Positions 4,872 through 58,344 of a stretch of 64,000 nucleotides of DNA are shown one piece after another. The stretch spans positions 16,769-80,768 of the forward strand of contig JACQKQ010000012.1 of the NCBI GenBank assembly GCA_016204465.1, in the 5' to 3' direction. The translations under genes were made by a program, and so were the position numbers. The notes beneath the pieces were generated by a model. That model saw only the letters and a list, made by a program, of their open reading frames with translations, was not told the origin of the DNA and made no database searches. The first letter of the stretch is position 1. Each line of letters starts with the position of its first letter. This stretch comes from Candidatus Levyibacteriota bacterium (GTDB taxonomy: Bacteria > Patescibacteriota > Microgenomatia > Levybacterales > UBA12049).

Positions 4872-4906
4872 AAAAACCCGAGGTGTCTACGATGTACACC
4901 CCTGGT
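4870..4906 (-). terminator. Intrinsic terminator for the minus-strand transcript of 5015..5278
   Basis: The minus-strand RNA reads CCAGGGGTGT-ACATCGTAG-ACACCTCGGG followed by a run of 7 U. The plus strand has no U tract. Confidence 0.6.
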
Positions 4907-5014
4907 GTGGAATAGCTAGACACGTAAGGATTACAGGGTTTTGGAAAACCAGTCGGCCATCAAATCCGTATATTCTTTATTCCACTTTTAGTTGCGAGGG
5001 CGTGATTAGCGCAT

Positions 5015-5278
5015 CTAAACGTCGCCGTTTTCTTTTATTTTTGTATCTTCGTACGGGCCGACAACTCTGCGATAGAGCTCGTGCGTAATTGCAGTCAGGA
5101 CGCCAAGCGCGCGGTTGTAATGGAAATATTTTTGCGGATACAGCTGCTTAATGATTTTTGTGACAATGTAGTTGAGCGAGCCGTCTTGCTCTTCGGTAGG
5201 CAATTTCTTTAGATGGCTAATAAGCGGCTCAAGTAAACTATCAATTTGCGGACGTTGTTCATTCTTAATATATGGCAT
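5015..5278 (-). CDS. Small conserved hypothetical protein (87 aa)
   Basis: Clean ORF ending ...YRRVVGPYEDTKIKENGDV. I have seen this C-terminal pattern in small phage/CPR proteins but cannot name the family. Confidence 0.5.
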   Translation of the reverse strand: MPYIKNEQRPQIDSLLEPLISHLKKLPTEEQDGSLNYIVTKIIKQLYPQKYFHYNRALGVLTAITHELYRRVVGPYEDTKIKENGDV

Positions 5279-5317: not shown

Positions 5318-5326
5318 TGGTATACT
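5318..5326 (+). promoter_or_regulatory. Putative extended -10 promoter (TGgTATACT) for fusA
   Basis: TG at 5318-5319 and TATACT at 5321-5326. Same architecture as the infA promoter. Confidence 0.4.
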
Positions 5327-5335
5327 TAACACGAT

Positions 5336-5441
5336 CTCAAAGCTCAAAGCGAAAAGCGCAAAGCTACAGAAATTTACCCACAAGTTTTTAGTTTTTAGCT
5401 GTAATTTTGAGTTTTACCTTTTGAGTTTTGATTTTTTGTAT
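5336..5441 (+). promoter_or_regulatory. Imperfect-palindrome leader of fusA (homologous to the infA leader)
   Basis: The left arm CTCAAAGCTCAAAGCGAAAAGCGCAAAGCTACAG is complementary to the right arm CTGTAATTTTGAGTTTTACCTTTTGAGTTTTG. The element ends in TTTTTTGTAT immediately before the ATG. Confidence 0.65.
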
Positions 5442-7592
5442 ATGGTAGTTGCAACAACACAAACCCGAAAAGTACCACTCGATCACATCAGAAACATTGG
5501 CATTATTGCCCATATTGATGCTGGGAAAACCACGACAACCGAGCGTATCCTCTTTTACACCGGCAGAACCTACAAGATTGGTGACATTGACGAAGGCACA
5601 ACGGTTATGGACTGGATGGAAGAAGAACGAAAGCGCGGCATTACGATTGTGTCTGCTGCAACCACCGCATTCTGGATCCACACAAAAGACAAAGATACTG
5701 GGAAAGACGACCCCTACAGAATTAACATTATTGATACCCCAGGCCACGTAGATTTTACCGCAGAGGTTGAGCGTTCGCTTCGAGTTTTGGACGGAGGCAT
5801 CACGGTTTTGGATGCCGAGGAGGGCGTACAGTCACAATCCGAGACAGTGTGGCGCCAGGCAGACAAGTACAAAGTGCCGCGTATTTGTTTTATTAACAAA
5901 ATGGATAAATTAGGCGCAGACTTTTTGGCAACGATTAAAAGCATCGAAGATCGCTTAGGCGCAAACACGGCAATTATGGTGTTGCCCATTGGGTTTGAAG
6001 CATCGTTTAAGGGTGTTGTTGATCTTCTCAATAGAAAAGCATACGTGTGGGGTTCAGACGAGCTTGGCGCAAAGTACGACGTATCAGACGAAATTCCAGC
6101 AGACATGAAAACGCAGGTTGAGGAGTATAGACACAAACTTGTCGAAAAGATTGCCGAAACTGATGACAAGCTCATCGAAAAGTATCTTAACAATCAAGAA
6201 ATTTCAGTTGAAGAATTAAAGGCAGCGCTTCGCCGGGCTGTCATTGCCTACAAACTCGTGCCAATTTACGCCGGATCATCACTTCGCAATAAGGGAGTGC
6301 AACCCCTCCTCGATGCAGTTGTTGACTACCTTCCATCCCCGCCCGATCTTAAGGAAACAAAAGGTATTCATCCAAAAACAGGGCAAGAGGAAGTTCGGCA
6401 GCTGACACCAGAAGAATCTTTGAGTGGCCTTGCATTTAAGATTCAAAACGACCCGCATGTTGGAAAGCTTACCTACTTTCGCGTGTACTCGGGGAAAATT
6501 TCAGCCGGATCTTATGTATACAACAGTACCAAAAATATACAGGAGCGTGTTGGTAGACTTCTTTTAATGCACTCCAATCAGCGTGAAGAAATAAAAGTTG
6601 CAGAAGCTGGAGAAATTGTCGCAATTGTTGGGCTTAAGGATACGGGCACAGGAGATACGCTTTGCGACCAGGCAAAGCCGATAGTTCTTGAGAAAATTTC
6701 CTTCCCAGAACCGGTTATTTCCTTGGCAATTGAGCCAAAGACAAAATCCGACCAAGAAAAACTTGGGTATGCATTAAAACGGCTTATGGAAGAAGATCCA
6801 ACCTTCCAGGTTAAGACAAACCACGAGACAGGGCAGACGATTATTTCCGGTGTTGGCGAATTGCAGCTTGAGGTAAAGGTGCACCAGATGAAAAGCGACT
6901 TTGGCGTTGATGCAAACGTTGGCGCGCCGCAGGTTGCGTACAAAGAAACAATTAACCAAAAAGCGCAAGCAGAGGGAAAATACATTCGCCAATCCGGAGG
7001 ACGAGGCCAGTACGGGCACTGTTTTTTGCGCGTTGAGCCAAAGCCACGGGGCGAGGGATATGAATTTGTTGATGCAATTAAAGGTGGTGCAATTCCGGCA
7101 GAATTTGTCAAGGCAGTTGAAAAGGGTGTAGTTGATACTATGGAAAATGGTATTCTGCTTGGCTACCCATTGGTTGACATGACGGTTACCTGTTACGATG
7201 GGTCCTACCACGATGTTGACTCCTCTGAAATTGCTTTCAAAATTGCAGCATCGCAAGCGCTCCAGGCTGCTACAAAAAAAGCAAATCTTACCCTTCTTGA
7301 ACCAATCATGAAGGTGGAGGTTACGACTCCTTCTGAATTTATGGGAGACGTCATTGGCGATTTGTCTGCAAAACGGGCGCAGATTTTGGGAACAGAAGAA
7401 CGACACAAAGCAACCATTATTTTGGCCATGGTGCCGCTCGCCGAACTTTCCGGCTACGCAACCACTTTGCGCAGCATGACGCAAGGGCGAGCCAGCTACT
7501 ACATGGAGCCGTCCCACTACGAAGAAGTGCCCAAAAACATCCAAGAACAATTGCTTGCAAAATCAACATTTACTGGTCGAGTTTCTGCCTAA
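5442..7592 (+). CDS. fusA: Translation elongation factor G
   Basis: [18 protein letters not shown] and DTPGHVDF G-domain motifs, with full-length EF-G architecture. ATG 5442 is preferred over the TTG at 5421. Confidence 0.95.
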
Positions 7593-8231: not shown

Positions 8232-8861
8232 GCAGCTAATAACCGCAATATCAATTCCAATTGGCAATAAGAGAAATAGATTGAGATTTTTGATTTGCTC
8301 ACTAATATCGATATTGAGAGTAATTGCCGGCGGAGAGAAACTAATACCCATAAGAAAACCTATTAAAAGAATTATACCGATGGTTGCAAAAAGTTCGAGG
8401 GCTCCTTCCATATCTTTTCTGCTTGAATACATCGTATTACCGATGACAAAGAGGATATAGCCAAAGAGGATTTGCTTCCACAATGTGTTCACGATTTGCA
8501 TTTCCAAAACAAGAAACGATCCCGCAATCAGCATAATACCAGCAATAATTGGCGCAGCGCCAATGAAAAAGCGGCGGATAGGATCGGTTTTGGCAATCGC
8601 AACGCTGCCAAGTTTTACTTCGTTTCCGTTCATTACCGGTAAAAACTCAATCTCGCCAGTTTTCACCAACAATAAATTTGCGACAATAAGGTGCGCGAGT
8701 TCATGCACCACTACTCCTGGAAAAAAGAGAATGGCCAAAATGGTAATTGTCAGCTTTTTGTTTTTCGTAATGCGATAGAGCATTTTTGATAGTTCGCGCG
8801 TGAGAAGAATTGAGAGGAAAAAGAGGAGTATAAGTTCAACAAAGACTAAAACGTATGCCAT
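8202..8861 (-). CDS. Polytopic membrane protein with HExxH zinc-metalloprotease motif
   Basis: Several hydrophobic helices and VVHELAHLIV. Family (M50-like or DUF3267-like) not resolved. Its 3' end overlaps the cupin gene by 30 nt. Confidence 0.55.
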   Translation of the reverse strand: MAYVLVFVELILLFFLSILLTRELSKMLYRITKNKKLTITILAILFFPGVVVHELAHLIVANLLLVKTGEIEFLPVMNGNEVKLGSVAIAKTDPIRRFFIGAAPIIAGIMLIAGSFLVLEMQIVNTLWKQILFGYILFVIGNTMYSSRKDMEGALELFATIGIILLIGFLMGISFSPPAITLNIDISEQIKNLNLFLLLPIGIDIAVISCSLITRRVLM

Positions 8862-8923: not shown

Positions 8924-9610
8924 ATGAAAACGATTGTTTGTATTTTTGCCCATCCGGATGATGAGGCGTTTGGGCCGGCAGGAACGATTGCCAAGCTGGC
9001 TAAAGAAAATGATGTATACATCCTTTGTGCGACAAAAGGAGAAGCAGGATTACAAAATAAAAAATTAGAAATTAAAAATCAAAATGACAAAGCAAAAATA
9101 AAAAAATTAGGAGAGATACGGGCAGATGAACTCCGTCAATCAGCAAAAGTACTCGGTGTGAAGGGTGTTTACTTTTTGGGATTTGAAGACGGAACGCTTT
9201 GTAATAACCTCTACCATAAGCTTACGGCAAAGATCAAAAGAAAGTTACTGCAGCTCAAACCGGAAATCATTCTCACATTTGAACCAAAAGGCATCTCCGG
9301 ACACATAGACCATATTACGGTTTCGATGGTTGCCTCGTTTTTGTTTTACAAGCTCTTATTTATCAAAGAGATGTGGCAGCATTGTTTGCTTAAAGAGTAC
9401 CAATACATGGTAGGGCAAAATTACTTTATCTACTTTCCGCCAGGGTACGATAGATCAGACGTTGACAAAACAATTGATGTTTCGGATGTATGGGAAACAA
9501 AGGTTGCGGCAATGTATTGCCATAAAACCCAACTAAAAGATATAAAGCGCATCTTGCGCTCGTACGCAAAACGGCCAAAAGAGGAAAACTTTCTTGTTGT
9601 CACGAAATGA
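8924..9610 (+). CDS. PIG-L / LmbE family deacetylase
   Basis: IFAHPDDEAFGPAG and GHIDHI motifs. Carries a heptamer-repeat-encoded Lys/Asn-rich insert (9060-9108). Confidence 0.8.
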   Translation: MKTIVCIFAHPDDEAFGPAGTIAKLAKENDVYILCATKGEAGLQNKKLEIKNQNDKAKIKKLGEIRADELRQSAKVLGVKGVYFLGFEDGTLCNNLYHKLTAKIKRKLLQLKPEIILTFEPKGISGHIDHITVSMVASFLFYKLLFIKEMWQHCLLKEYQYMVGQNYFIYFPPGYDRSDVDKTIDVSDVWETKVAAMYCHKTQLKDIKRILRSYAKRPKEENFLVVTK

Positions 9611-10912: not shown

Positions 10913-11680
10913 TTATAATGTATATGGTACGTGGTGTTTGAAGGAGTTGCGTTTGACCCAATCAAGAATTATCTCTGCGTTTGCAAGGCCTCGCCTTGCA
11001 AGCTCATCAATACTCACTTTTTTTTCAAAATGCAAGTACAGCACCTGGTCTGCTTCTTGGTAAGTAAATCCAAATTCTCCCTCATCCGTTTGCCTCTGCC
11101 AAAGCCCTGCAGTTGGTTTTTGTTCAATAATTTTTTTGGGGACACCAAGATACTTTGCAAGTTTGTACACTTGGATTTTGTACAAGTGGCGAATCGGTTC
11201 AATGTCCGATGCCTCGTCGCCAAAACGGGTAAAGTAGGCTAAATAATGTTCGGATTTATTCTCTGTTCCAACCACAAGCGCATTTTCTTTTTTGGCAAAA
11301 TCGTACAAAAAAATCATCCTCATTCGAGCCATAATGTTACCCAGCCGAGTATTATTGTTTCCTAATTCGTTATTCCTAATTCCTAATTCATTTGAAACCG
11401 TATCGACAGCGCTTTTAATAGAGATCATTTTCAGATTTACGTCAGGTATACCTGTATATCTTACAAATTCTTTAATTTCTTTTTTGTCAGGTTTATAATA
11501 ATATAAATGTATAGGGAAAATATGTTCTTTTGGCAGTGCGCGGGATAAAAGAAAAAGTGAGGTTGTTGAGTCAATGCCTCCCGAAATACCAATAACTGCT
11601 TTTTGAACACCTTGTTCTGCGAACGTTTTTTTCAGGAAATAAATGATCTGCTCTATTTCTTTTTTCGCGTCTATTTTCAT
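10913..11680 (-). CDS. nadE: NH3-dependent NAD+ synthetase
   Basis: GISGGIDS PP-loop and a conserved NadE C-terminus. Contains a heptamer-repeat insert (ELGIRNNELGNNN). Confidence 0.85.
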   Translation of the reverse strand: MKIDAKKEIEQIIYFLKKTFAEQGVQKAVIGISGGIDSTTSLFLLSRALPKEHIFPIHLYYYKPDKKEIKEFVRYTGIPDVNLKMISIKSAVDTVSNELGIRNNELGNNNTRLGNIMARMRMIFLYDFAKKENALVVGTENKSEHYLAYFTRFGDEASDIEPIRHLYKIQVYKLAKYLGVPKKIIEQKPTAGLWQRQTDEGEFGFTYQEADQVLYLHFEKKVSIDELARRGLANAEIILDWVKRNSFKHHVPYTL

Positions 11681-12966: not shown

Positions 12967-13007
12967 GGCGTTAACCTTACAAGTTGTAGGGTGATTTTTT
13001 TAATATC

Positions 13008-14554: not shown

Positions 14555-14653
14555 TTGTTTCTGCTCTCAAAGTATAGTATAATAGTAAGTAACCTATGGA
14601 GGTGATAACGGCCTAATTCCTATTTCACGGAATTCACACGAATGGTAAGGTGG

Positions 14654-14678
14654 GTAGCCGAAATAGGCTACTTTTTTT
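14654..14678 (+). terminator. Terminator-like hairpin between rpsJ and rplC
   Basis: GTAGCC-GAAATA-GGCTAC followed by T7, ending 3 nt before the rplC ATG. Confidence 0.5.
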
Positions 14679-14681
14679 GTT

Positions 14682-15314
14682 ATGATTACAGGGTTTATTG
14701 GAACAAAGATTGGACAGACACAAGGTTTTACACAAACTGGGGTACGTATTCCTATTTCCAAAGTGAGTGTAGTCTCACTGCCTATTGTTTCGATCAAGAC
14801 CAAAGAAAAAGACGGTTACACAGCGCTGCAGGTTAGTGTAGGAGCAAAGAAACGAGAAATTCCTATTAAAGAAGATAGTGTAACCATGCCAAACGTCGGT
14901 GACATTCTTAAAATAACAGAAGTAGTAAAACCAGGAGATATTGTTGACGTTACGGGTATTTCGAAGGGGAAGGGGTTTGCAGGAGTTGTCAAGAGGCATC
15001 ACTTTAAAGGTGGGCCGCGAACGCACGGCCAATCAGACAGGGAACGAGCGCCCGGATCAATCGGTCAAACAACAACACCAGGAAGAGTTTATAAAGGAAA
15101 ACGGATGGCTGGTCGAATGGGTCACAATAAGGTAACAGTAAAAAACCTTACGGTTATGGATGCAACAGACAACGAAATTGTCATTAAAGGGCTTATTCCT
15201 GGAATTATCAATGGTATCGTTATGATCAAAAAAGTCGGAGAAAGCAAGAAGTTTTCTCCGCTTTATAAAGTTCAGATTGAAGAAATAAAGGAAGGGATAA
15301 AAGATGCCAGCTAA
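14682..15314 (+). CDS. rplC: 50S ribosomal protein L3
   Basis: GKGFAGVVKRHHFKGGPRTHGQSDRERAPGSIG is the L3 signature. Confidence 0.95.
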   Translation: MITGFIGTKIGQTQGFTQTGVRIPISKVSVVSLPIVSIKTKEKDGYTALQVSVGAKKREIPIKEDSVTMPNVGDILKITEVVKPGDIVDVTGISKGKGFAGVVKRHHFKGGPRTHGQSDRERAPGSIGQTTTPGRVYKGKRMAGRMGHNKVTVKNLTVMDATDNEIVIKGLIPGIINGIVMIKKVGESKKFSPLYKVQIEEIKEGIKDAS

Positions 15315-16053
15315 ACCAAAGTCAAAAATCAAAAGTCAAAAATCAAAGACTAACAAAAAGCCTGTAGCCACTATTGGTACTGTCAAAAAACCTGTTCGCG
15401 CTGCAAAAGGATTGACGGTTGATGTGTACGACATCAAAGGGAGTGTTGCTGGAACTATTTCCTTGCCAAAAGAAATTTTTGCTGCAAAAGTAAACTCGAG
15501 ACTTATGACCCAAGCGGTTCGCGTGTACCTTGCCAATCAGCGAAAGGGTACAGTATCGACAAAAACGCGTGGAGAAGTTATAGGCTCAACGCGTAAAATC
15601 TACCGGCAAAAAGGAACAGGAAGAGCGCGACATGGCGCTATCACAGCCCCAATCTTCGTTGGCGGCGGCGTTGTTTTTGGGCCAAAGCCTCGGGATTATG
15701 CGCTCAAGTTGCCGCAGAAAATGAAAAGAGCAGCACTTTTTTCTGCCATCAGTGCTAAAGTAAGCGATAATGCTGTAAGGGTTATTGCAGACCTTGAGAA
15801 AATTGCACCAAAAACAAAATCAATGGCAGCACTCGTTGATAAATTGCAGCTTGATTCTAACAAGAAGGTGCTTTTGGTTCTTCCTCAAAATGTTGATAAT
15901 GTGCTTCGCGCAGCGCGAAACATTCCAAATATTGAGATCATGCATGTTACCCAGCTTACTACTTACAAAGTACTTGAGAGCGTTTACATTCTTTTTATGC
16001 AGCAAGCACTAGATGCATTTTTAAAGCTGCGCAAAAAGGAGGAGAAGCAGTAA
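15304..16053 (+). CDS. rplD: 50S ribosomal protein L4 (Lys-rich N-terminal extension)
   Basis: [13 protein letters not shown]...[10 protein letters not shown] is the L4 core. The N-terminal [12 protein letters not shown] is encoded by a 14-nt tandem repeat at 15321-15348. Confidence 0.93.
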
Positions 16054-19937: not shown

Positions 19938-20272
19938 AAAAAAGTTCAAAGTTCAAAGTTAAAAGTTCAAAGTTACAAAAGGGGGATGAGGTGAAGATTG
20001 TTCGAGGCAGGGATAAAGGGAAAACGGGAAAAATTAATAAGGTATTTCCCAGGGTATCTAAAGTGCTTGTCCCTGGGGTTAATGAGTTTAAGCGGCATTC
20101 GAAAGCTAGGACGCAGTCACAAAAATCTGAAATTATTACAATTGTTAAGCCACTCCCTATTGCAAGCGTAGCGCTTATCTGTCCTAAGTGTCACGAGCCA
20201 ACACGCGTTGGTTTTTCGATGCTGGAAGGAAAGAAAACACGTATTTGTAAAAAGTGCCAACAAACATTATGA
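19934..20272 (+). CDS. rplX: 50S ribosomal protein L24 (heptamer-encoded N-terminus)
   Basis: KGDEVKIVRGRDKGKTGKI is the KOW core. The N-terminal KKSSKFKVKSSKLQ is encoded by AAAGTTC/AAAGTTA x5. Confidence 0.9.
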   Translation: MKKSSKFKVKSSKLQKGDEVKIVRGRDKGKTGKINKVFPRVSKVLVPGVNEFKRHSKARTQSQKSEIITIVKPLPIASVALICPKCHEPTRVGFSMLEGKKTRICKKCQQTL

Positions 20273-26606: not shown

Positions 26607-26635
26607 TTGCTCTCTATGTGTAGATTTGCTATAAT
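26607..26635 (+). promoter_or_regulatory. Putative promoter for infA (TTGCTC, 17-nt spacer with TGc, then TATAAT)
   Basis: -35-like TTGCTC at 26607-26612 and extended -10 TGCTATAAT at 26627-26635. Confidence 0.5.
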
Positions 26636-26640
26636 ACTTT

Positions 26641-26748
26641 TAAGTTAAAAGTTCAAGGTTAAAAATGTAAAGTTACAATTGCGAGTTGACAGTTTTTAAT
26701 TTTGCATTGTAATTTTGCACTTTACATTTTGAATTTTTAACTTTTTTG
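26641..26748 (+). promoter_or_regulatory. Imperfect-palindrome leader of infA (homologous to the fusA leader)
   Basis: The heptamer-period left arm (26647-26681) is complementary to the T-rich right arm. TTACAAT(T)GC pairs with GCATTGTAA at the apex. The element ends in TTTTTTGTATG. Confidence 0.7.
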
Positions 26749-26749
26749 T

Positions 26750-26968
26750 ATGTCGCATCAGGGATCATTTGAAGTAGATGGCGTTGTAAAAGAATCGTTG
26801 CCAAATACGCTGTTTCGCGTACAGCTTCCTGATGGCAGTATCGTTTTGTGTCATTTGTCCGGCAAGATGAGAATGAATTTTATTAAAATCTTGCCGGGAG
26901 ATAAGGTTCGTATTGAGATGACACCGTACGATAGAACAAAAGGGAGAATCGTGTTTAGATTTAAGTAA
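26750..26968 (+). CDS. infA: Translation initiation factor IF-1
   Basis: 72 aa S1-fold with [16 protein letters not shown]...[16 protein letters not shown]...YD. Confidence 0.95.
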
Positions 26969-27998: not shown

Positions 27999-28003
27999 TG
28001 AAA

Positions 28004-28079
28004 ATATCAAATTTCAAATATCAAATTTCAAATATCAAACCATTAGAAATTAGAAATTGGAAATTAGAAATTAGAAATT
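28004..28079 (+). repeat. Two 5 x 7-nt heptamer arrays (ATATCAA/ATTTCAA, then AGAAATT/GGAAATT) in the rpsD leader
   Basis: Arrays at 28004-28038 and 28045-28079. AATTTC words of the first array are complementary to GAAATT words of the second. Confidence 0.85.
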
Positions 28080-28100
28080 CCATAGATTGGAGGGTAATCT

Positions 28101-28691
28101 ATGGGTAGGTATACAGGACCAAAACACAGAATAGCAAGACGCGAAGGGGTAAATTTGCTCGACAAGCAGTCGGGATCTCTTTTACGGCGGCTTAATATTC
28201 CACCGGGAGTCCATGGTAAAAAGCGAAAAAGGGCATTGTCAGAATTTGGTGTCCAGCTGCGAGAAAAACAAAAAGCAAAAGCAATATACGGTCTTCTGGA
28301 AAAGCAGTTTAAACGACTTGTAACCTCTGTTCAGAAGAAAAAAGGCGAAACAGGCGAAATGCTTATCGCGCTTTTAGAGACCCGGCTTGATAATCTTCTC
28401 TACCGTCTTGGACTTGCAAAGACGCGCTTTCAGGCAAGACAGTTTGTTACGCATGGACACGTCTTGGTAAATGGAAAAAAAGTTTCTATCCCTTCATACC
28501 AGGTGAATGTTGGTGATGAGATTGCTTTATCGCCTCATATGCAGGAAAAAGTTGTTCTAGAAAAAGAGCAGGCTTTTTTACCTTTTGTTGTCCAAGAAGG
28601 CGGTAAGGGAAAACTGCTTCATATGCCAAAACGCGAAGAAGTCCAGGTTCCGTTCGATACGCAGTTGATTATTGAATATTATTCAAGATAG
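28101..28691 (+). CDS. rpsD: 30S ribosomal protein S4
   Basis: MGRYTGPKHRIARREG... and an S4 RNA-binding domain (RLDNLLYRLGLA). GGAGGG SD sequence upstream. Confidence 0.95.
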   Translation: MGRYTGPKHRIARREGVNLLDKQSGSLLRRLNIPPGVHGKKRKRALSEFGVQLREKQKAKAIYGLLEKQFKRLVTSVQKKKGETGEMLIALLETRLDNLLYRLGLAKTRFQARQFVTHGHVLVNGKKVSIPSYQVNVGDEIALSPHMQEKVVLEKEQAFLPFVVQEGGKGKLLHMPKREEVQVPFDTQLIIEYYSR

Positions 28692-29660: not shown

Positions 29661-29733
29661 TACGAATGTATGCGAATGATCGATTATTCGAATTGATTCG
29701 AATACTTCAAATTCGTATGAATTCGTATTTTTT
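29661..29733 (+). repeat. CGAAT/ATTCG palindromic repeat cluster between rpoA and rplQ
   Basis: TACGAAT, GCGAAT, then ATTCG x4, ending ATTCGTATGAATTCGTATTTTTT. Confidence 0.8.
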
Positions 29734-40691: not shown

Positions 40692-41201
40692 ATGGATCAG
40701 CTCGACGTACTGTACAACAAGGCACTCCGTTTTCTCTCCTTTCGTCCTCGTTCAGAAAAAGAAGTTCGCGACAATCTCCTCAAGAGTAGGAAAAGTATAA
40801 AGAAGGTAGAAATAGATCAAAAAGTTATTGATCAAGTAATTACAAAACTTAAAGAGCAACACTTTGTTAACGATGAAGAATTCACAAAGTGGTGGATTGA
40901 ACAGCGGACAAAGTTTCGACCGAAAGGAAAACGGCTTATTCAGATTGAACTGAAGCAAAAAGGAATAGCGCAAGAGACAATAGAAAGAATAGTTGAAAGT
41001 TCAGAGTTGAAAGTTGAAAATGAATTAGAACGAGCCAAGGTGTTAGTTCAAAAAAAGTTACGAAAATATAAAAATCTTCCTCGATTTGAGCAGTATCAGA
41101 AATTAGGCGCAATGCTGGGGCGGTTTGGATTCGATTATGACATAATCAAGCAGAGTATTGACGAGGTTTTAAGAGGGGAGTATAATACATCTAAAGACTG
41201 A
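40692..41201 (+). CDS. recX: Recombination regulator RecX
   Basis: ALRFLSFRPRSEKEVRDNLLK and repeated three-helix modules. An alternative TTG start lies at 40668. Confidence 0.8.
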   Translation: MDQLDVLYNKALRFLSFRPRSEKEVRDNLLKSRKSIKKVEIDQKVIDQVITKLKEQHFVNDEEFTKWWIEQRTKFRPKGKRLIQIELKQKGIAQETIERIVESSELKVENELERAKVLVQKKLRKYKNLPRFEQYQKLGAMLGRFGFDYDIIKQSIDEVLRGEYNTSKD

Positions 41202-41303: not shown

Positions 41304-42569
41304 ATGACAGTAACGGATCAAGATCTCATTACGCTTGAGAAGAAGCTTCTTGAAAGAGAGGAGAAAATTGACCGCGAGAGAGATCAGCTTGAAAAAGAAA
41401 GAGAACATCTACAAGACTTAAAAGAAGACTACCGCAATAAACTGCAGGATGTATCGGGTTTAACAACTGACGAAGCAAAGCAAGAGCTTCTTGCCGAAGT
41501 AGAAGCGCAGGAGGCAAAAGTGATTGCGCGCATTATTAAAGAGCGAGAGGAAGAAGCAAAACGCACAGCAGACAAAAAAGCACAAGAGATTCTGTTGGAT
41601 AGCCTCAAGCACGGCGCGCTTAATTATATTGCGGAATATACTGTTTCAACCGTAAAAGTTGCCGATGAAGACATGAAGGGCCGTATTATTGGCAAAGAAG
41701 GTCGCAACATCCGGGCATTCGAGCAGGCAACAGGTGTTGACGTTGATTTAGACGAAGAGGGTATTATTCGGATTTCATCGTTTGACCAAGTTCGCCGCGA
41801 AATTGCAAGGCGTGCGCTTGAGACGCTGCTTAAAGATAACCGTATCCAGCCGTTTCGGATAGAAGAAGTTGTCGAACAGACCAAAAAAGAAGTTGAAAAA
41901 ATTATGCTGGAGGAAGGTGAAAAGTTGGCACACGAAGCAGGAGCTTACAACATACCAGCAGAGCTTTTATCAATACTTGGTCGTTTTAAGTTTCGTACAT
42001 CTTATGGTCAGAATTTGATCGTTCACACCCTTGAAGAAACAAAAATTGGTGTGCATATTGCTAAGGAGATTGGTGCGGATGCAAATATAGTGCGTCTAGG
42101 TTGCTTGTTCCACGACATTGGCAAAGTTATCGAGGGTGAGGGAAGCCATGTAAAACTTGGCGTTGATCTTTTGAAGCGATTTAATATTCCAGAGCCAATT
42201 GTCAACTGTGTTGCAGAGCATCACGAAGATAAGCCTTTCTCATCTGTTGAGTCAGTTATTGTTGCGATTGCCGATGCAATTTCTGGCGCCCGGCCGGGTG
42301 CTCGATACGAGGATTTTGAAGAGTACGCAAAACGCTTAACCGAAATGGAAAAAATTGCAAAAAAGCACGAAGGCGTTGAAGATGCATACGCGTTTGAGGC
42401 CGGACGCGAGCTTCGGGTAATTATTAACCCGGGCAAACTCGACGATGCGCAGACAACGCTTGTTGCACACAAAATTCGAGAAGAGGTAAGCAGAAGTTTA
42501 GCTGTCCCCGGCGAGGTAAAAGTAACTGCAATTCGCGAATTCCGCGCCGTATCTACAGAATCTAACTAG
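41304..42569 (+). CDS. rny: Ribonuclease Y (no N-terminal membrane helix)
   Basis: Coiled-coil N-terminus, KH domain (GRIIGKEGRNIRAFE), and HD domain (HDIGK...HH). Confidence 0.9.
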   Translation: MTVTDQDLITLEKKLLEREEKIDRERDQLEKEREHLQDLKEDYRNKLQDVSGLTTDEAKQELLAEVEAQEAKVIARIIKEREEEAKRTADKKAQEILLDSLKHGALNYIAEYTVSTVKVADEDMKGRIIGKEGRNIRAFEQATGVDVDLDEEGIIRISSFDQVRREIARRALETLLKDNRIQPFRIEEVVEQTKKEVEKIMLEEGEKLAHEAGAYNIPAELLSILGRFKFRTSYGQNLIVHTLEETKIGVHIAKEIGADANIVRLGCLFHDIGKVIEGEGSHVKLGVDLLKRFNIPEPIVNCVAEHHEDKPFSSVESVIVAIADAISGARPGARYEDFEEYAKRLTEMEKIAKKHEGVEDAYAFEAGRELRVIINPGKLDDAQTTLVAHKIREEVSRSLAVPGEVKVTAIREFRAVSTESN

Positions 42570-42929: not shown

Positions 42930-42934
42930 GACGC

Positions 42935-43072
42935 GAATACACACGAATTTTGCTTACTGTTTTCTTATTCGTGATAATTCGCATTGTGAGTACAGCTTAT
43001 AAAATCAATTCCAGCATGCGAATTTATGCGAATATTATATAATAGCATTGCTGATTCGTGTGAATTCGTATT
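42935..43072 (+). repeat. Two CGAAT/ATTCG palindromes between hup and the ABC ATPase gene
   Basis: GCGAATACACACGAAT...ATTCGTGATAATTCGC and GCGAATTTATGCGAAT...ATTCGTGTGAATTCGTATT, with the latter abutting the ATG at 43073. Confidence 0.8.
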
Positions 43073-45633: not shown

Positions 45634-46036
45634 TGTCCTAGGAAGCGAGTAAGCCAGATTCTGTTTTGCAACCGCAATCTCTCTCAATGTGATGTTTTTC
45701 GCTCACACCGCCCGCCTTTTACGGCGAGGTGCCCTCATGCCTTGACACTCTCGTAAAGTAGATGTTCGTCCGCCTTGACTTGCGCTTCGGCGAGACGAGC
45801 GTGTCGCTCGGAGGTTGCAGCGGGTAGGATTGCCCGTTTCACTCCCACTCGTCTCTGTTGCTCTCAGGTCCTGTTATTTCAGAACTTGTTCGCAGCTTCA
45901 CATGTGGGTAAAAAGCTGCGACACTAGGGCTTTCGCTTCGGAGCTTATGCTCCGTCCCCGACTTTACACCTGTCTGGACTTTCCTCCCTCCTTCGCACAA
46001 AGCTACGGAAGGGAAGCGGTCCTGCTTCCCAGGACA
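45634..46036 (-). ncRNA. rnpB: RNase P RNA, bacterial type
   Basis: The minus strand contains GAGGAAAGTCCAGAC (CR-I/P4) and ACAGAATCTGGCTTA (CR-V/P4). P1 pairs TCCTGGGAAGC with GCTTCCTAGGA. Length is about 400 nt and the ends are approximate. Confidence 0.9.
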
Positions 46037-46094
46037 TTAGCATTCTATCAAAACAACTGCTAGCTGTCAACCTTAGTATGATATACTAAACGTT

Positions 46095-46708: not shown

Positions 46709-49660
46709 TCAAACGCGGCAAAGCATTTTGTATTCACAATCGCGGCAGAAGATGCCGCTAGAACATGCAAAATCACTTTTTTCAATTTCTTCAACCTTCT
46801 TAAAGATTACTTCTTTTGCCGCTTCAAGCTGCTCACGTGTTCGTGTGGTGCTTATTTTCTTATCTTCTTCAATGTAATACAACGAGAGTGTGACATCATC
46901 AGGATTTCTGTTAAAAAGCGTGTCGTTTACGTTTGCTGCTGCAAGTGCGTACATGGTTAACTGTAAATTGTCAACAAGATCACCTTCATCTGGGATATTG
47001 CTGCCGGTTTTATAGTCAATAATTTCAATTGTGTTTTCGCCGACTTTATCAACCCTGTCAATCCGTCCTGCAAGTTTGAGACTTCGTTTGCGCAAGGCTC
47101 GATCAGTAACGTAAAATTGGAATGGCACTTCAACGCCAATTGGGTACCTGCCATGTTCCAAATGGCTGTGTTTGTCAAAATACTGGGCAAGGATTTCTTG
47201 TGCGCGCTGTCTTGCCTGGCTTTGGTGCGCTTTACTTGTGTATCCTTCATCAACCCAGCGATTTTCAAGAAATTTTAGTAGATCATTCTTTGTCGGTTTC
47301 CTGCCCGCGATTACCTCTTGATAAAAATCTTTGAGCGTCAAGTGGATACTTGAGCCAAAGCTTAACGCCGCTATCGGCTGGGGAGGAATTTTAAGAATGT
47401 ATCGAAGTTTATAGTGTAAGGGACAAAGGTCAAAACATTGTATCTGCGAAAATGAGAGGTAAGTGATGGGAACAGAGGTTTGAGGCTTGAGGTTAGAGGT
47501 TAGCTTTGATTGTCGTTCTGCCCAGTCCAAAAGCGATGGTTGGACAACGGCGCTTTGGGCTTTTTGTCTCAAGATTGCATCGTTTACTGCTTTCTCACCA
47601 AGCGCCTCGTAGACAAACGGCGAGATTTTTCGCTCCCGTTTTCCCTCTCCGTAAAAATTTGCAGCGGTAAAAAAGAGATAGTCGCAAGACCTTGTCATGC
47701 CAACGTAGAAAAGCCGTCGTTCCTCTTGCATATGGAAGTCGCCTTCGGGCAAAATCTCTTTAATAAGCTCTTGTGGAATAGGAATTTGCTCTTTGCGCTC
47801 GCGTGTTGGAAAGCGCTGTGAAACCAAATTGACTAAAAACACGATAGGAAACTCAAGGCCTTTGCTTGCATGGATTGTCAGAATATTCACCGCATTGTTT
47901 TCGTTCCAGTCCATGTCTGTTGCAAGTGGGCTTTCTCCCATTTGCATAGAAAGGTCAATCCAATCAACAACTGCAAATACACTCGCATCTTCGTGTTCTG
48001 CCTCATACGATTTGAGTTTTTCAAAAAACTTTGCGATGTTTTGGTAGCGCTTCATTTCGTATTCGCTTTTAGGCTCAAGAAACTTTTTAAGAAGACCAGA
48101 GTCCTGCAGAAAGTAGTACAAAATTTGTCCGGCTGTCTCTTTTGGAACAAGGTTAAGATGGCGCTTGAGCATACTGTAGATTTTTTGCAGTTCTTCAATA
48201 GTTTTCTCGTGGATTGGGAGAGAATCTGCGACCCTTTTTTGCACAACTTTTTCCAGCGCTTCAAAAAGCGTAAGGTTTTTACGCCTGGCAAGATTAAGTA
48301 GTGCCGCGATGTCGCGCATCTCAAGCAAAAACACTGGCATGGTAAGCACTCGATAAAGCGACGTTGTATCCTCGAAACTATAAAGGACCTTTAAGTAAGC
48401 AATTAGGTCTTTTATTTCGTCTTGATGAAACAGTTTTCCTGGTCCTAAAAATTGGAATGGAATATTATGCCTTAATAGCGCTCGTACAAACGCTTGCGCA
48501 TGGTCGTTTGCACGAATAAGAATTGCAATATCTTTATATTCATACTGTTTTTTTGCCAAAAGTAATTGAATTTTTTTGGCAACGCAATCAGCCTCATCCT
48601 CAACTCGCGTTCCCCACAAGAGTTCAATTTCTTTTCCTTTCACTTTTCGCATCGCTCTAAGCTTTTTTACAACCTTCTCTTTTACTTCGAGCCTATCAGG
48701 ATTATTGTGTTGTATTAAAGTATATGCGCTGTCTAATATTTCTTGCGTTGAGCGGTAATTTCCTGTAAGCGCTATGATTTTAGTATCTGGAAATTGTTTA
48801 CGAAATTGGATAATGTTGGAAATTGCGGCACCTCGCCAGCGGTAGATTGCCTGGTCGTCATCGCCAACAACAGTAATGTTTTTTCGCTTACCGGTAAGGA
48901 GTACAGCTAACTGATTTTGTGCAAAGTTAGTATCTTGGAATTCGTCAACAAGTATATAGTGAAATTGCTCTTGGTACTGGCGCAAGATATTTTTTCGCTC
49001 TCGGAAAAGCTTTAATGTGTTCGTTATTAGATCGGAAAAATCCATAACACCCTCTCGCGCTTTCAGCTCCTCATATTTTAGGTACATATTCGCTAATTCC
49101 AGCGTCTTTTTTGCTTCAATCTTATCAGCGTCTAGCGATAAGCGTTTAGCGTTTAGTTTTGCAGCATATTTTAGATAATCAGTAGGGCTCACATCTTCAT
49201 CTGCAAGCCGGCTAAAGTGCTGGAGGAGGCCTTCTAAAAATTTATTCGGGTTACCAAGCGGCCGAAAGTAGTCAAGCTTGAAAGCAAAAATATTTTTGCG
49301 CAAAAACATAACTGTTTCTGCTTCGGTCATAAGCTTATACGAGGGGTTAAGGCCAATATGAATTGCCTCTGTGCGCAAGATTCGATCGCAAAATGCATGG
49401 AACGTTGCAATCCACATCTGCGTGTAGCCATACGGCATTGCAATATCAACGCGCTCTTCCATTTCACGGGCTGCTTTATCAGTAAAAGTGAGGGCTAAAA
49501 TTTGCGAATGGTGAATATTCTTTTTAAGAATAAGGTGCTTTATGCGTTCTGTAACAACTGTTGTTTTGCCTGTACCAGCGCCGGCAATGATAATAAGCGG
49601 ACCTTCACCGTGGGTTACCGCATCGTGTTGCGCATCATTAAGAATTATAGCCTGCGGCAT
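46709..49660 (-). CDS. UvrD/PcrA-type helicase fused to a C-terminal PD-(D/E)xK nuclease with Fe-S cysteines (AddA/AddB-like)
   Basis: AGAGTGKTT Walker A, DEFQDT, further UvrD motifs, and a C-terminal domain with CPLHYKLRY ... IDYKTG ... CSSGIFCRDCEYKMLC. Confidence 0.88.
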   Translation of the reverse strand: MPQAIILNDAQHDAVTHGEGPLIIIAGAGTGKTTVVTERIKHLILKKNIHHSQILALTFTDKAAREMEERVDIAMPYGYTQMWIATFHAFCDRILRTEAIHIGLNPSYKLMTEAETVMFLRKNIFAFKLDYFRPLGNPNKFLEGLLQHFSRLADEDVSPTDYLKYAAKLNAKRLSLDADKIEAKKTLELANMYLKYEELKAREGVMDFSDLITNTLKLFRERKNILRQYQEQFHYILVDEFQDTNFAQNQLAVLLTGKRKNITVVGDDDQAIYRWRGAAISNIIQFRKQFPDTKIIALTGNYRSTQEILDSAYTLIQHNNPDRLEVKEKVVKKLRAMRKVKGKEIELLWGTRVEDEADCVAKKIQLLLAKKQYEYKDIAILIRANDHAQAFVRALLRHNIPFQFLGPGKLFHQDEIKDLIAYLKVLYSFEDTTSLYRVLTMPVFLLEMRDIAALLNLARRKNLTLFEALEKVVQKRVADSLPIHEKTIEELQKIYSMLKRHLNLVPKETAGQILYYFLQDSGLLKKFLEPKSEYEMKRYQNIAKFFEKLKSYEAEHEDASVFAVVDWIDLSMQMGESPLATDMDWNENNAVNILTIHASKGLEFPIVFLVNLVSQRFPTRERKEQIPIPQELIKEILPEGDFHMQEERRLFYVGMTRSCDYLFFTAANFYGEGKRERKISPFVYEALGEKAVNDAILRQKAQSAVVQPSLLDWAERQSKLTSNLKPQTSVPITYLSFSQIQCFDLCPLHYKLRYILKIPPQPIAALSFGSSIHLTLKDFYQEVIAGRKPTKNDLLKFLENRWVDEGYTSKAHQSQARQRAQEILAQYFDKHSHLEHGRYPIGVEVPFQFYVTDRALRKRSLKLAGRIDRVDKVGENTIEIIDYKTGSNIPDEGDLVDNLQLTMYALAAANVNDTLFNRNPDDVTLSLYYIEEDKKISTTRTREQLEAAKEVIFKKVEEIEKSDFACSSGIFCRDCEYKMLCRV

Positions 49661-52408: not shown

Positions 52409-53443
52409 TTAATCAAAATACAATTCTGGATTGGCGGTGATATTTTGCCAGTTAACTGGATTGTAGTTGAAAAAGGCGGCTGTGGCAATCATGGCGCCAT
52501 TGTCGGTGCAGAGAAATTTTTGTGGAACAAAAATTTCAGCGTTTATCGTATAGCGTTTAGCAGTTAGTTCAAATTGATTACGAAGTGCTTCATTCGCCGC
52601 AACGCCGCCCCCGAGGAGAATTGATTTTGCGTTGTACTTTTGCGCAGCGTTTAATGTTTTCTTTACGAGCACGTCAATGATTGCTTGTTGGACGGAGGCG
52701 GATATGTCCGCAATTGTTACATTGTTACATTGTTCTATTGTTTTTGTTAAACGAAGGGCTGCGGTTTTTAGTCCTGAAAACGAGAAGTCATAATCATCTG
52801 AATCTATCATTGGACGAGGAAAACGAAATGCCTTTGGATTTCCTTGCTTTGCCAGTTTTTCTATTGTCGGGCCCGCTGGGTATGGCAAGTTAAAGAGTCG
52901 TCCAATTTTGTCAAAGGCCTCACCAGCTGCATCATCACGAGTCCCCCCAAGCCAGACTATATCACCATGTTTCTTCATCAGAACAAGGTCGGTGTGGCCG
53001 CCGGACACAACCAGCGCAAGCGCTGGAAATTTCGAATTTCGAATTTCGAATTTCGAATTTGCGCGAACGAAGTTCGCGTAGATGTGGCCGATCAAATGAT
53101 TCACTGGGACAATTGGCTTTTTCCAAATATACGAAAGCGTTTTGGCTGTTTCAACGCCAACGAGAAGCGATCCAATGAGTCCGGGGCCATTTGTTACTGC
53201 AATTGCATCTATTTCCTTCTCATTGAAATTTGCATCTTTTAGGGCTTTTTTAATAACCGGAAGAATATATTCTATTTGCGCTCGAGCAGCAACTTCGGGA
53301 ATAATACCGCCGGTTTTTGCGTGCAAGGGCAATGACGAGCTCATAAAATTGGAAAGAAGAGCAACACGCGATGCGTTCTGTGTTCCTTTGACAACTGCTG
53401 CCGCTGTTTCGTCGCAAGAGGTTTCTATGCCAAGAATTACCAT
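52409..53443 (-). CDS. tsaD: tRNA N6-adenosine threonylcarbamoyltransferase TsaD with heptamer-encoded insert
   Basis: ILGIETSCDETAAAVV, HLIGHIYA, VVSGGHT and GGGVAAN motifs. The insert is NSKFEIRNSKF. Confidence 0.93.
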   Translation of the reverse strand: MVILGIETSCDETAAAVVKGTQNASRVALLSNFMSSSLPLHAKTGGIIPEVAARAQIEYILPVIKKALKDANFNEKEIDAIAVTNGPGLIGSLLVGVETAKTLSYIWKKPIVPVNHLIGHIYANFVRANSKFEIRNSKFPALALVVSGGHTDLVLMKKHGDIVWLGGTRDDAAGEAFDKIGRLFNLPYPAGPTIEKLAKQGNPKAFRFPRPMIDSDDYDFSFSGLKTAALRLTKTIEQCNNVTIADISASVQQAIIDVLVKKTLNAAQKYNAKSILLGGGVAANEALRNQFELTAKRYTINAEIFVPQKFLCTDNGAMIATAAFFNYNPVNWQNITANPELYFD

Positions 53444-54410: not shown

Positions 54411-54496
54411 AAATTTCTAATTATTCTAATCAAATCCCAATTTCGAAATTTGGAAATTCATTAGAAATTAGGTCAATTAGACCAATTAGGTCAATT
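54411..54496. repeat. AT-rich word repeats and palindrome (CCCAATTTCGAAATTTGG; CAATTAG units)
   Basis: Shares the words GGAAATT and TTAGAAATTAG with the rpsD leader arrays at 28045-28079. Confidence 0.75.
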
Positions 54497-57462: not shown

Positions 57463-58344
57463 ATGTCCGACGCGATCCAACGTGCAATTCTTCGTACCCT
57501 TATATACGCAGATATTTTTAGCTATCCGCTCACTCTTGCCCAGCTGCATAAGTTTCTTATTTTTAACCGGCCGGTTTCTAAAAAAAATATTAAAAACATA
57601 TGTCAACAAATGTCTTCTGTACGAAAGGAGGATGATTTCTATATGTTAAAAAAAAGCAGGATAAATATTGCCATTCGTAAGATAAAAGAAGCGTCAAGCA
57701 ACGAAAAAATTGCATTTGCAAGGCAGTTGACGCGTATTTTTCGAATTATCCCTTGGGTGCTTTTTGTTGGAATAAGCGGTGCAGTTGCTGCAGGGAATGC
57801 TAGAAAAAAAGACGATATTGATTTCTTTGTAATTGCCAAGCGAAAAAGACTTTGGCTTACGAGGTTTTTTCTTGTTATACTTTTACAGATCTTTGGACTT
57901 AGGAGAAAACGATTAGAGAAAAAAGTTATGAATACGATTTGCCTCAATATGCTTCTTGATGAACGTTGCCTTTTGCTTGGCAGCAAAAGGCAAGACGTAT
58001 ATACCGCTCATGAGATTGTTCAGATGCTGCCGATTTTTGATCGTGGAGATACATATAGCCGGTTCCTTATGGCAAATAAATGGGTAAGAGGATATTTACC
58101 CAATAGCATAGATACTAAAATATTAAGATATTACGATATTAAGAAAAAATCACCTAATATCCCAATATTTCAATATTTTAGTATCATAGAATTAATTGCA
58201 AAACAATTACAGCTGTGGTACATGAGAAAACATAGAACGCATGAAATAATAACCGATAACATGCTTGCTTTTCACCCAGTTGATTATAGAAAAAAGGTAC
58301 TTTTTTTATACACAAAAAGACTTAAGCAGTATGGCATTGTATAA
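57463..58344 (+). CDS. Hypothetical protein, possible pol-beta-like nucleotidyltransferase fold
   Basis: GISGAVAAGNARKKDDIDFFV resembles the GS...DxD NTase motif. Weak evidence. Confidence 0.35.
   Translation: MSDAIQRAILRTLIYADIFSYPLTLAQLHKFLIFNRPVSKKNIKNICQQMSSVRKEDDFYMLKKSRINIAIRKIKEASSNEKIAFARQLTRIFRIIPWVLFVGISGAVAAGNARKKDDIDFFVIAKRKRLWLTRFFLVILLQIFGLRRKRLEKKVMNTICLNMLLDERCLLLGSKRQDVYTAHEIVQMLPIFDRGDTYSRFLMANKWVRGYLPNSIDTKILRYYDIKKKSPNIPIFQYFSIIELIAKQLQLWYMRKHRTHEIITDNMLAFHPVDYRKKVLFLYTKRLKQYGIV

Follow-up and report, generated by a model that had tools for sequence, protein, structure and literature searches.

The genes fusA and infA of a Candidatus Levybacteria bacterium, encoding the translation factors EF-G and IF-1, are preceded by leaders that share a conserved layout: an extended -10 promoter box, a hairpin that begins 0-4 nt from where the transcript is predicted to start, a U-tract adjoining its stem, and an AUG without a Shine-Dalgarno (SD) sequence. 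Both genes lie in a stretch of 64,000 nucleotides (64 kb; contig JACQKQ010000012.1, positions 16,769 to 80,768), here called the window and numbered from its first letter. The long arms of the two hairpins are inverted arrays of heptanucleotide tandem repeats, and their pairing is kept by compensatory changes. The two hairpins are a local version of a general leader design and are not specific for translation factors. They are best classified as heptad hairpins similar to the cyanobacterial short tandemly repeated repetitive (STRR) elements, which in Levybacteria have become part of a conserved leader module that lacks an SD sequence. No papers describing such hairpins or this leader layout in bacteria of the Candidate Phyla Radiation (CPR) were found in the literature searched.

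Anatomy of the fusA and infA leaders

Both leaders are read on the + strand. At fusA, the extended -10 box TGgTATACT (5318-5326) is followed by the left arm (5336-5369), an A-rich heptad array of CTCAAAG-type units with TACAG at its end. Tandem Repeats Finder (TRF) reports a period of 7 with 4.3 copies of CTCAAAG at 5336-5365, and the arm is paired in both the minimum free energy (MFE) structure and the consensus structure. The apical region (5370-5398) is mostly unpaired in the predicted fold and varies in length and sequence across the aligned relatives. The right arm (5399-5431) is a U/G-rich heptad array, CTGTAATTTTGAGTTTTACCTTTTGAGTTTTGA, that forms many G-U pairs with the left arm; here TRF also finds period 7 (AGTTTTT x8 at 5383-5437). 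A tract of six T (U in the transcript) at 5432-5437 abuts the stem and lies 4 nt before the SD-less ATG (5442-5444).

The infA leader is built in the same way. Its extended -10 box is TGcTATAAT (26627-26635), and the infA genes of relatives carry TGnTATAAT in the same place. The left arm AAGTTAAAAGTTCAAGGTTAAAAATGTAAAGTTACAAT (26642-26679) and the right arm ATTGTAATTTTGCACTTTACATTTTGAATTTTTAACTT (26706-26743) form an inverted repeat of 38 nt that is 79% complementary, and both arms are paired in the predicted fold. The T6 tract (26742-26747) ends 2 nt before the SD-less ATG (26750-26752). From the start of the -10 hexamer to the ATG the distance is 121 nt in fusA and 120 nt in infA, and none of the motifs GGAG, GAGG and AGGA was found upstream of either gene. 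An earlier note on this DNA, made from the letters alone, had already described the two -10 boxes with their TGn, the start codons, these distances and the absence of an SD sequence, and all of its coordinates are right.

Each copy folds, as that note had also proposed, into a long hairpin with imperfect pairing; on the + strand, the energy is -28.4 kcal/mol for fusA (z -3.0) and -37.1 kcal/mol for infA (z -6.1). The reverse strands fold much less stably (fusA: -20.8, infA: -21.0 kcal/mol), so that the + strand is better by 8-16 kcal/mol, because many of the pairs are G-U. The GC content of the hairpins in the window is 23-31%, and the part of the stem next to the U-tract shares this AU/GU richness.

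Homology and compensatory changes

The fusA and infA leaders align nearly without gaps, with a local alignment score of 54. Leaders that were shuffled arm by arm with preservation of dinucleotides score 22.5 on average (sd 3.7), and none of 2000 shuffles reaches 54 (z about 8.5). The similarity is therefore not an artefact of composition, and the resemblance that was first noticed by eye survives a low-complexity-aware statistic. The covarying pair that had been pointed out with it, G5369-C5399 in fusA against A26678-T26707 in infA, is real.

The pairing was further analyzed in a set of nine homologous leaders with a consensus hairpin of 28 pairs. Paired cells make up 91.6% of this alignment, compared to 86.0 +/- 1.2 in shuffles (0/500 as high). 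Compensatory changes are observed at nine pairs, and the covariation score is 0.26 versus 0.17 in shuffles, again with 0/500 as high. When the register is slid by 1-3 columns, the paired cells fall to 22-57%. In the leader hairpins, G-U pairs are frequent and A-C is rare.

No third full copy of the leader was found in the window, either with nhmmer or with a covariance model: it holds two full copies and one half copy. The covariance search that the earlier note had called for thus yielded no further full copy in the 64 kb, and hairpins of the same class in other genomes. At gathering score, Rfam 15 identifies one tRNA and nothing else in the whole window. When both leaders are ranked by E-value, Rfam gives only weak matches (14-23 bits) to eukaryotic microRNA (miRNA) precursor models, whose gathering scores are 48-95 bits.

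The fusA leader in relatives

By its EF-G and IF-1, the window belongs to Candidatus Levybacteria, a group within the Microgenomates (CPR/Patescibacteria): the closest match of EF-G has 87% identity, and IF-1 is identical to P0001, a protein of a Levybacteria metagenome-assembled genome. The relatives were compared over flanks of 10 kb at fusA and 4 kb at infA.

About 35 relatives have a TGnTATACT promoter of their own before fusA. The interval between the -10 hexamer and the stem is at most 9 nt in 35 fusA leaders, and 29 of these 35 have a T-run that begins 0-2 nt after the stem. The distance from this U-tract (T5-T8) to the ATG ranges from 2 to 47 nt, and an SD sequence is absent from all but 2 of the leaders scored. 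The majority of relatives have a short, GC-rich hairpin here that resembles a terminator (for example L002, L008, L018 and L027, where T6-T8 follows). A long heptad hairpin homologous to that of the window occurs in L003, L005, L009, L011, L012, L016 and L023 and in the metagenome locus L180. The conservation in relatives on which the earlier note had staked its proposal is indeed found: orthologous fusA leaders are 74-83% identical at about 80% EF-G identity. In three more distant relatives (L036, L053, L072) fusA is leaderless, and in other Microgenomates it lies directly behind rpsG, with an SD-like motif in some (e.g., L060, L043).

Other small elements also occur in these leaders. In the fusA leaders of L001 (9800-9990) and L007 (20-150), another small palindrome family (GTCATCCCGAA...TTCGGGATC; ATTCCGGATCAAGTCCGGAATGACA) replaces or interrupts the heptad hairpin, and only the first part of the left arm is left (ATCTCAAAGCTCAA / AGTTAAAAGT). 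A GC-rich palindrome, GCCCGCTTCGCCAAAGC...GCGAGGCGAGC, is inserted in the right arm of heptad hairpins in L005 (4225-4262), L136 and L114, which are unrelated contigs. This suggests that a second small element nests in the heptad repeats.

Conserved layout and sequence turnover at infA, tuf, rpsL and rplC

At infA, the gap between map and infA measures 116-141 nt in relatives and starts with TGnTATAAT. The hairpin units, however, are unrelated: ATTGTTGC/GCAAT in L081, L088 and L096, AATTCGAAA/TTCGGAT in L091, and CTAATTyC/ATTAGGTC in L101. A U-rich tract (T5-T8) comes after every one of these hairpins, and the ATG behind it has no canonical SD sequence. The units differ and the arrangement is the same; thus the layout is conserved and the sequence is not. 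In L106 the promoter region is similar and the hairpin is absent, with the -10 hexamer 8 nt before the ATG, while the same site is filled in L101.

The tuf gene of the window shows a fusA-like layout with an unrelated sequence: a TTGACT-N17-TATTAT promoter is followed by a short hairpin and T7 (12974-13001, +) and by an SD-less ATG at 13008. At tuf in other Levybacteria, the promoter is TTGACG-N17-TGTAnTATnnT; a short hairpin and T5-T9 follow, and the ATG again lacks an SD sequence. In distant relatives that carry AAGGAGG at tuf, the layout of hairpin and U-tract is absent.

At rpsL, the window contains a leader hairpin of the same class as those of fusA and infA (AAATTCA and TTTTTGC heptads, 2751-2827, +), followed by an SD-less ATG at 2824. 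A heptad hairpin is likewise found at the rpsL sites of L001, L002 and L016, whereas six relatives have short SD-less leaders (empty sites). The rpsL site of L013 carries a one-armed (CAATTTT)5 array.

The spacer between rpsJ and rplC (14555-14681) contains a promoter, TATAGTATAAT, and then a structured leader of about 80 nt that ends in a canonical terminator: GGGTAGCC-GAAATA-GGCTAC and T7, 3 nt before the SD-less ATG of rplC. This leader is kept in L001, L021 and L022 and has no Rfam match; Rfam gave nothing relevant in the whole tuf-rplC region. It may be an attenuator controlled by a ribosomal protein.

Probable copying between loci and spread of the hairpin family

The window's infA leader shares 86% identity with the L023 fusA leader and 75% with that of L005, compared to 61% with the fusA leader of its own window. 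The latter groups with the fusA leaders of L011 and L012 (74-75% identity). As the infA leader is closer to a fusA leader of another genome than to that of its own, leaders have moved or been converted between loci. The two copies in the window are thus alike because a leader was copied or converted from one locus to another, and they do not have the look of an old riboregulator held in common.

The covariance model built from the nine leaders matches A-rich/T-rich heptad hairpins immediately upstream of rpsL, rpsC, rpsM and rpsG in other genomes, and also the rplM-rpsI and rpoA-rplQ spacers. Since the model scores any long AT-rich hairpin, its weaker matches denote membership of a class and not homology. 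The exact right-arm pattern occurs in more than 120 metagenome stretches among the matches listed, on contigs that may not be from Levybacteria. The neighbors of these matches are rpsB, atpA, purE, purQ, nth, tatD, murG-like, cytidylyltransferase and tRNA-synthetase genes; the matches occur in either orientation, frequently 1-9 nt past a stop codon, and 23 of 80 lie inside crudely called open reading frames (ORFs).

Two origins had been offered in the earlier note. That of a cis-regulatory RNA of translation factors holds in so far as homologous structured 5' leaders are present, but the element is not specific, preceding rpsL, rpsC, rpsM, rpsG and many other genes. That of a mobile hairpin which supplies 5' untranslated regions (UTRs) fits better, given the filled and empty sites and the greater identity of the infA leader to the fusA leader of L023 than to that of its own genome; no transposon hallmarks were found. 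Inspection of the flanks of both leaders showed no target-site duplication, the whole element being palindromic, and no associated transposase was seen, with no search aimed at transposases made.

Promoters, predicted transcript starts and initiation modes

At least nine genes of the window carry TGnTAnAAT 6-9 nt before the ATG (e.g., 8924, 46095 and 60919 on the + strand; 51112, 49660 and 5278 on the - strand). With an extended -10 box so close to the ATG, these genes must be leaderless. Many genes, that at 8861 (-) among them, look leaderless when either TGnTAnAAT or TATAAT at this distance is considered. A divergent bacterial RNase P RNA is encoded at 45634-46032 (-), with 39 bits and an E-value of 7.6e-11. 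The Rfam gathering score is 100, so that a default scan misses this RNA. It starts 9 nt after the extended -10 box TGATAGAAT (46042-46050). TGnTAnAAT is thus very probably a promoter, with a start about 7-9 nt downstream of the hexamer. Applied to fusA and infA, the spacing of 6-9 nt at the leaderless genes and the RNase P RNA would place the predicted start at the base of the hairpin: the stem bases 5337 (fusA) and 26642 (infA) would fall at about +1 to +4 of the transcripts. Judged from these motifs, the leaders are very probably the 5' UTRs of fusA and infA.

Two other roles for the hairpin region were considered and rejected. An alternative promoter within the hairpin would need a TAnnnT hexamer with TGn 6-9 nt before the ATG, and there is none at either gene. 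A terminator of the upstream gene does not fit either, as the neighbor of fusA is divergent (5015-5278, -, DUF6899) and itself leaderless, and L096 has its own terminator-like hairpin before the infA promoter.

An SD-like motif is found in about one third of the genes. Together, these observations suggest that this genome uses at least three modes of initiation side by side: leaderless, SD-led, and hairpin plus U-tract without an SD sequence. For a contingency of SD presence against hairpin plus U-run, the sample holds 4 SD-led promoters.

Heptad arrays and spacer hairpins in the window and lineage

The heptad arrays and hairpins are a genome-wide trait of this Candidatus Levybacteria genome and of other Microgenomates. 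TRF detects 17 period-7 arrays in the window, versus 0-2 in each of five shuffled versions. No other period is as frequent in the loci surveyed from Levybacteria (0.5 Mb) or in those from other Microgenomates (0.6 Mb). The co-directional spacers, 135 in number, are often structured: the MFE z-score is at or below -3 in 17 of them and at or below -2 in 34, while chance alone would yield about 3 at -2. The z-scores were used because the pair count of the largest hairpin domain per spacer does not tell real from shuffled spacers.

The window carries rpoC, rpsL, rpsG, five unrelated genes, fusA, further genes, tuf, the S10, spc and alpha ribosomal clusters, map and infA; fusA and infA are 21 kb apart. 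The spacer between rpsK and rpsD (28002-28079, +) holds a hairpin of the same class with different units (AAATATC and ATTAGAA heptads). Directly behind it, the start region of rpsD (28080-28104) forms a small hairpin, CCATAGATT-GGAGGG-TAATCTATGG, with the SD sequence in the loop and the ATG in the stem, which may be an autoregulatory site for S4. Further spacer hairpins are located at 29661-29729, 42930-43072, 54411-54470 and 58111-58185. That at 42930-43072 is a nested double hairpin with CGAAT-type units upstream of an ABC-transporter ATPase gene. A TATAAT box lies between its inner hairpin and its outer right arm; transcripts from that box would therefore lack the left arm.

Heptad arrays also extend into coding sequence. 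Within rplX, an (AAAGTTC)x5.4 array (19941-19979, +, also given from 19934; nhmmer E 1.7e-4, also found by TRF) nearly equals the left arm of the infA leader and has no partner arm. It gives L24 an extra N-terminal MKKSSKFKVKSS, whereas the L24 of relatives begins with MKLKKGDEV. Another heptad array lies at the 5' end of rplD (15313-15348), and KVKSS-type motifs occur in the L4 N-termini of several relatives. Period-7 arrays in other coding genes are found at 53028-53060 (-), 47474-47503, 49127-49156, 40991-41019, 11359-11389 and 9049-9084, one example being AATTTCG x4.7 with 100% identity.

Between convergent genes, the 143-nt spacer at 4872-5014 has a stable fold (-38.9 kcal/mol) without a terminator-like U-tract. 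Most of the other convergent pairs in the window overlap or sit less than 45 nt apart, which leaves no room there for intrinsic terminators.

Proposed function and rival explanations

The leader is tentatively read, with somewhat less than even confidence, as a protective or insulating 5' stem combined with a U-rich tract for ribosome loading. A stem at the 5' terminus would shield the mRNA from decay that depends on the 5' end, and it would lock A-rich and U-rich sequence locally. The short unstructured U-rich stretch before the AUG would then allow SD-independent ribosome loading on the first cistron. The tightly constrained position of the hairpin at the extreme 5' end fits the design of a 5' stabilizer, and RNase Y is encoded in the window (41304-42569). 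U-runs follow 11 of 21 promoter-proximal hairpins, compared to 17 of 190 others (p = 4.7e-6), and in several of the ten promoter-proximal hairpins scored as negative the T-run is absorbed by the predicted stem; long inter-cistron hairpins usually lack a U-tract. This association of the U-tract with promoter-proximal hairpins fits a loading signal for the first cistron that does not need an SD sequence. As the hairpin sequence is free to vary and some sites are empty, any function lies in the leader position and not in the heptad sequence.

Several observations weigh against this reading. The U-tract abuts the stem and lies 2-47 nt from the AUG, as expected of an intrinsic terminator; for a tract that binds ribosomes, a place set by the AUG would be more likely. 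The empty sites (infA of L106, fusA of L053, L072 and L036, and the short rpsL leaders) show that the long hairpin is dispensable for expression. We infer the transcription start, and with it the 5'-terminal position of the stem, from promoter spacing alone. The covariation could stem from homogenization of the two arms at the DNA level instead of selection on the RNA, and the enrichment of G-U pairs from a C-to-T mutation bias on the leading, non-template strand, an option that arises because the GC skew is positive throughout the window. Moreover, the sense strand is more stable in 76 and less stable in 58 of the co-directional spacers, a weak bias (p = 0.03), and among 43 metagenome hairpins the ratio of sense to antisense is 21:22, as obtained with a search pattern that favors the G/T-rich strand. 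Selection at the RNA level on the whole hairpin class is thus not established.

A promoter-proximal intrinsic terminator or attenuator is the main rival and a serious one, albeit on the unlikely side. Here the hairpin and U-tract would stop some of the RNA polymerases 30-120 nt past initiation. Read-through would be set by nucleoside triphosphate (NTP) levels, elongation rate, or Nus and antitermination factors, tuning EF-G, IF-1, EF-Tu and the rplC operon, and the outcome would be a coordinated growth-rate control of translation genes. Because the U-tract is set relative to the stem and not to the AUG, this explanation fits the geometry equally well: the T-run starts 0-2 nt after the stem in the 29 of 35 fusA leaders whatever the distance to the ATG, the stems in the window are followed by T6 at 5432-5437 and 26742-26747, and close relatives carry textbook GC-rich stems with T6-T8. 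The enrichment of U-runs is specific to promoter-proximal hairpins, and a module at tuf, fusA, infA and rplC would make a coherent regulon. Hairpins with U-runs also occur away from extended -10 boxes, where RNA polymerase probably uses them as terminators. Promoter-terminator coupling is described as widespread in the available part of a 2026 preprint. However, an attenuator does not need to be placed at the 5' end, yet the stem starts within 9 nt of the -10 hexamer at 35 loci. The genes in question are essential and highly expressed, and leaderless variants exist. The long heptad stems are AU/GU-rich up to the U-tract, which predicts weak termination, and a generic terminator scan misses the hairpins of the window. 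Neither an alternative antiterminator structure nor a leader peptide is visible.

It is rather unlikely that the hairpins are non-adaptive repeat DNA, comparable to STRR, REP or miniature inverted-repeat transposable elements (MITEs). In that case, slippage or template switching would expand heptad arrays and turn them into palindromes, and the hairpins of fusA and infA would as such be without function. The arrays would build up where they are tolerated: in short 5' UTRs, cistron spacers and protein termini. This explanation accounts well for the period-7 arrays in coding and non-coding DNA, for the one-armed arrays in the rpsL leader of L013 and in rplX, and for orthologous promoters with filled and empty sites. 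The patchy distribution over loci and genomes, the unrelated contexts and both orientations of the listed metagenome matches (some inside crudely called ORFs) and the lack of a general sense-strand bias point in the same direction. It is less easily reconciled with fusA, where some hairpin with a U-tract is present in about 35 genomes and empty sites are confined to more distant relatives; the position of the hairpin thus seems to have a function, even though the repeat sequence may have none. The orthologous fusA leaders moreover keep their 74-83% identity at about 80% EF-G identity, with compensatory changes, and the distance from -10 box to ATG is kept between fusA and infA. In the 64 kb window, neither terminal inverted repeats nor target-site duplications nor a high copy number was seen.

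A dedicated riboregulator, in which the shared leader sequence is bound by a protein, small RNA or ribosome to co-regulate EF-G and IF-1, is highly improbable and already largely refuted: the two leaders are alike beyond chance in one genome and both belong to SD-less translation factor genes, but the infA genes of relatives have unrelated units or are leaderless, the majority of fusA genes carry a short hairpin that is unrelated, the window's own tuf has yet another hairpin, the family precedes many non-translation genes, and there is no Rfam match.

A broader proposal can be made, which we consider doubtful. In Levybacteria, and perhaps in the wider CPR, tuf, fusA, infA and the rplC operon would use a shared, undescribed module: a 5' terminator-like hairpin and U-tract that replace the SD sequence and act as tunable attenuator or ribosome loader. 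Its stem would be rebuilt again and again by a lineage process that generates heptads and moves leaders.

Significance

Almost nothing is known about the start and the control of gene expression in uncultivated CPR bacteria. The SD-less mode with hairpin and U-tract is found chiefly at those translation genes that are expressed most highly. Should the module govern premature termination, ribosome loading or the stability of the mRNA, the translation machinery would have a simple control point throughout the lineage. Annotation is affected as well: heptad hairpins lengthen called ORFs, add lysine-rich tails to ribosomal proteins, and mimic miRNA-like or terminator-like structures. STRRs have been without a known function for decades, and the parallel provides a second independent system to study the origin of 7-nt repeats. 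The broader pattern of heptads and leaders is of more interest than the original pair of copies.

Comparison with known systems

In leader terminators (the S10 leader with L4, pyrBI, and lambda PR'-tR'), a hairpin with an abutting U-tract lies between the promoter and the first gene, some of the operons concerned being ribosomal or translational. The Levybacteria leaders differ in that they show no competing antiterminator, leader peptide or site for a known factor, in the place of the hairpin at the 5' end, and in the AU/GU richness of the long versions. A GC-rich stem beside the U-tract is not found in the window, but it is found in the short orthologous hairpins of relatives.

Stem-loops that act as 5' stabilizers (the ompA 5' UTR of E. 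coli, and aprE and ermC in B. subtilis) lie no more than a few nt from the start of the mRNA of a highly expressed gene, and their sequence can vary freely provided that the stem remains. The leader stems resemble them in lying within about 4 nt of the predicted 5' end of the transcript. The known stabilizers, however, precede a normal SD sequence, whereas here the U-tract abuts the stem and the SD sequence is absent; stabilization by these leaders is putative.

Initiation without an SD sequence can proceed via unstructured U/A-rich start regions and standby sites. One of the papers concerned with non-SD initiation is PMC5397173. The leaders share with such SD-independent or standby sites an SD-less AUG behind a short U-rich single-stranded stretch beside a stable hairpin. 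They differ in the variable distance between U-tract and AUG (2-47 nt), and binding of the ribosome or S1 is putative here.

Among the palindromic repeats, the leaders are similar to ERIC, Correia, REP and RPE elements in their presence or absence at orthologous sites (infA: L106 empty, L101 filled; rpsL: six empty, four filled). ERIC/IRU, Correia/NEMIS, REP/BIME, RUP and the Rickettsia RPE are imperfect palindromes of about 35-150 bp that are intergenic, co-transcribed and form RNA hairpins; their sites may be filled or empty, and RPE can lie inside genes. Several surveys deal with stem-loop families (PMC1590033, PMC2267715, PMC3733652). Compared to ERIC, Correia and REP elements, the leaders have a low copy number per type (two full and one half copy in 64 kb), an internal 7-nt periodicity and locus-specific units. 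Furthermore, their position is fixed relative to the -10 box and the ATG, and they have no defined termini.

The closest parallel is found in cyanobacteria. The earlier note knew of no described leader of this kind, which has to be corrected, as the STRR hairpins with 7-bp repeats are a described analogue (PMC2670836). STRRs are usually 7-bp tandem repeats at many intergenic sites that can form hairpins between genes or at promoters, for example between hupS and hupL and in the hoxW promoter (PMC2670836). What they do is not known; transcript stability and translational coupling have been put forward as possible roles (PMC2670836). They also occur within an RNA gene, according to the available part of Vioque (1997). 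The leaders in the window are likewise tandem arrays of about 7 nt, dispersed over mostly intergenic loci and inverted into hairpins. STRR units follow consensus sequences such as CCCCAGT. In Candidatus Levybacteria, the units are AT-rich (AAAGTTC, AAAATTC, TTTTGAA) and vary by locus, making the leaders an analogue of the STRRs and not a member. Unlike STRRs, the CPR arrays are tied to the layout of promoter, hairpin, U-tract and SD-less ATG, and they extend into the N-termini of proteins.

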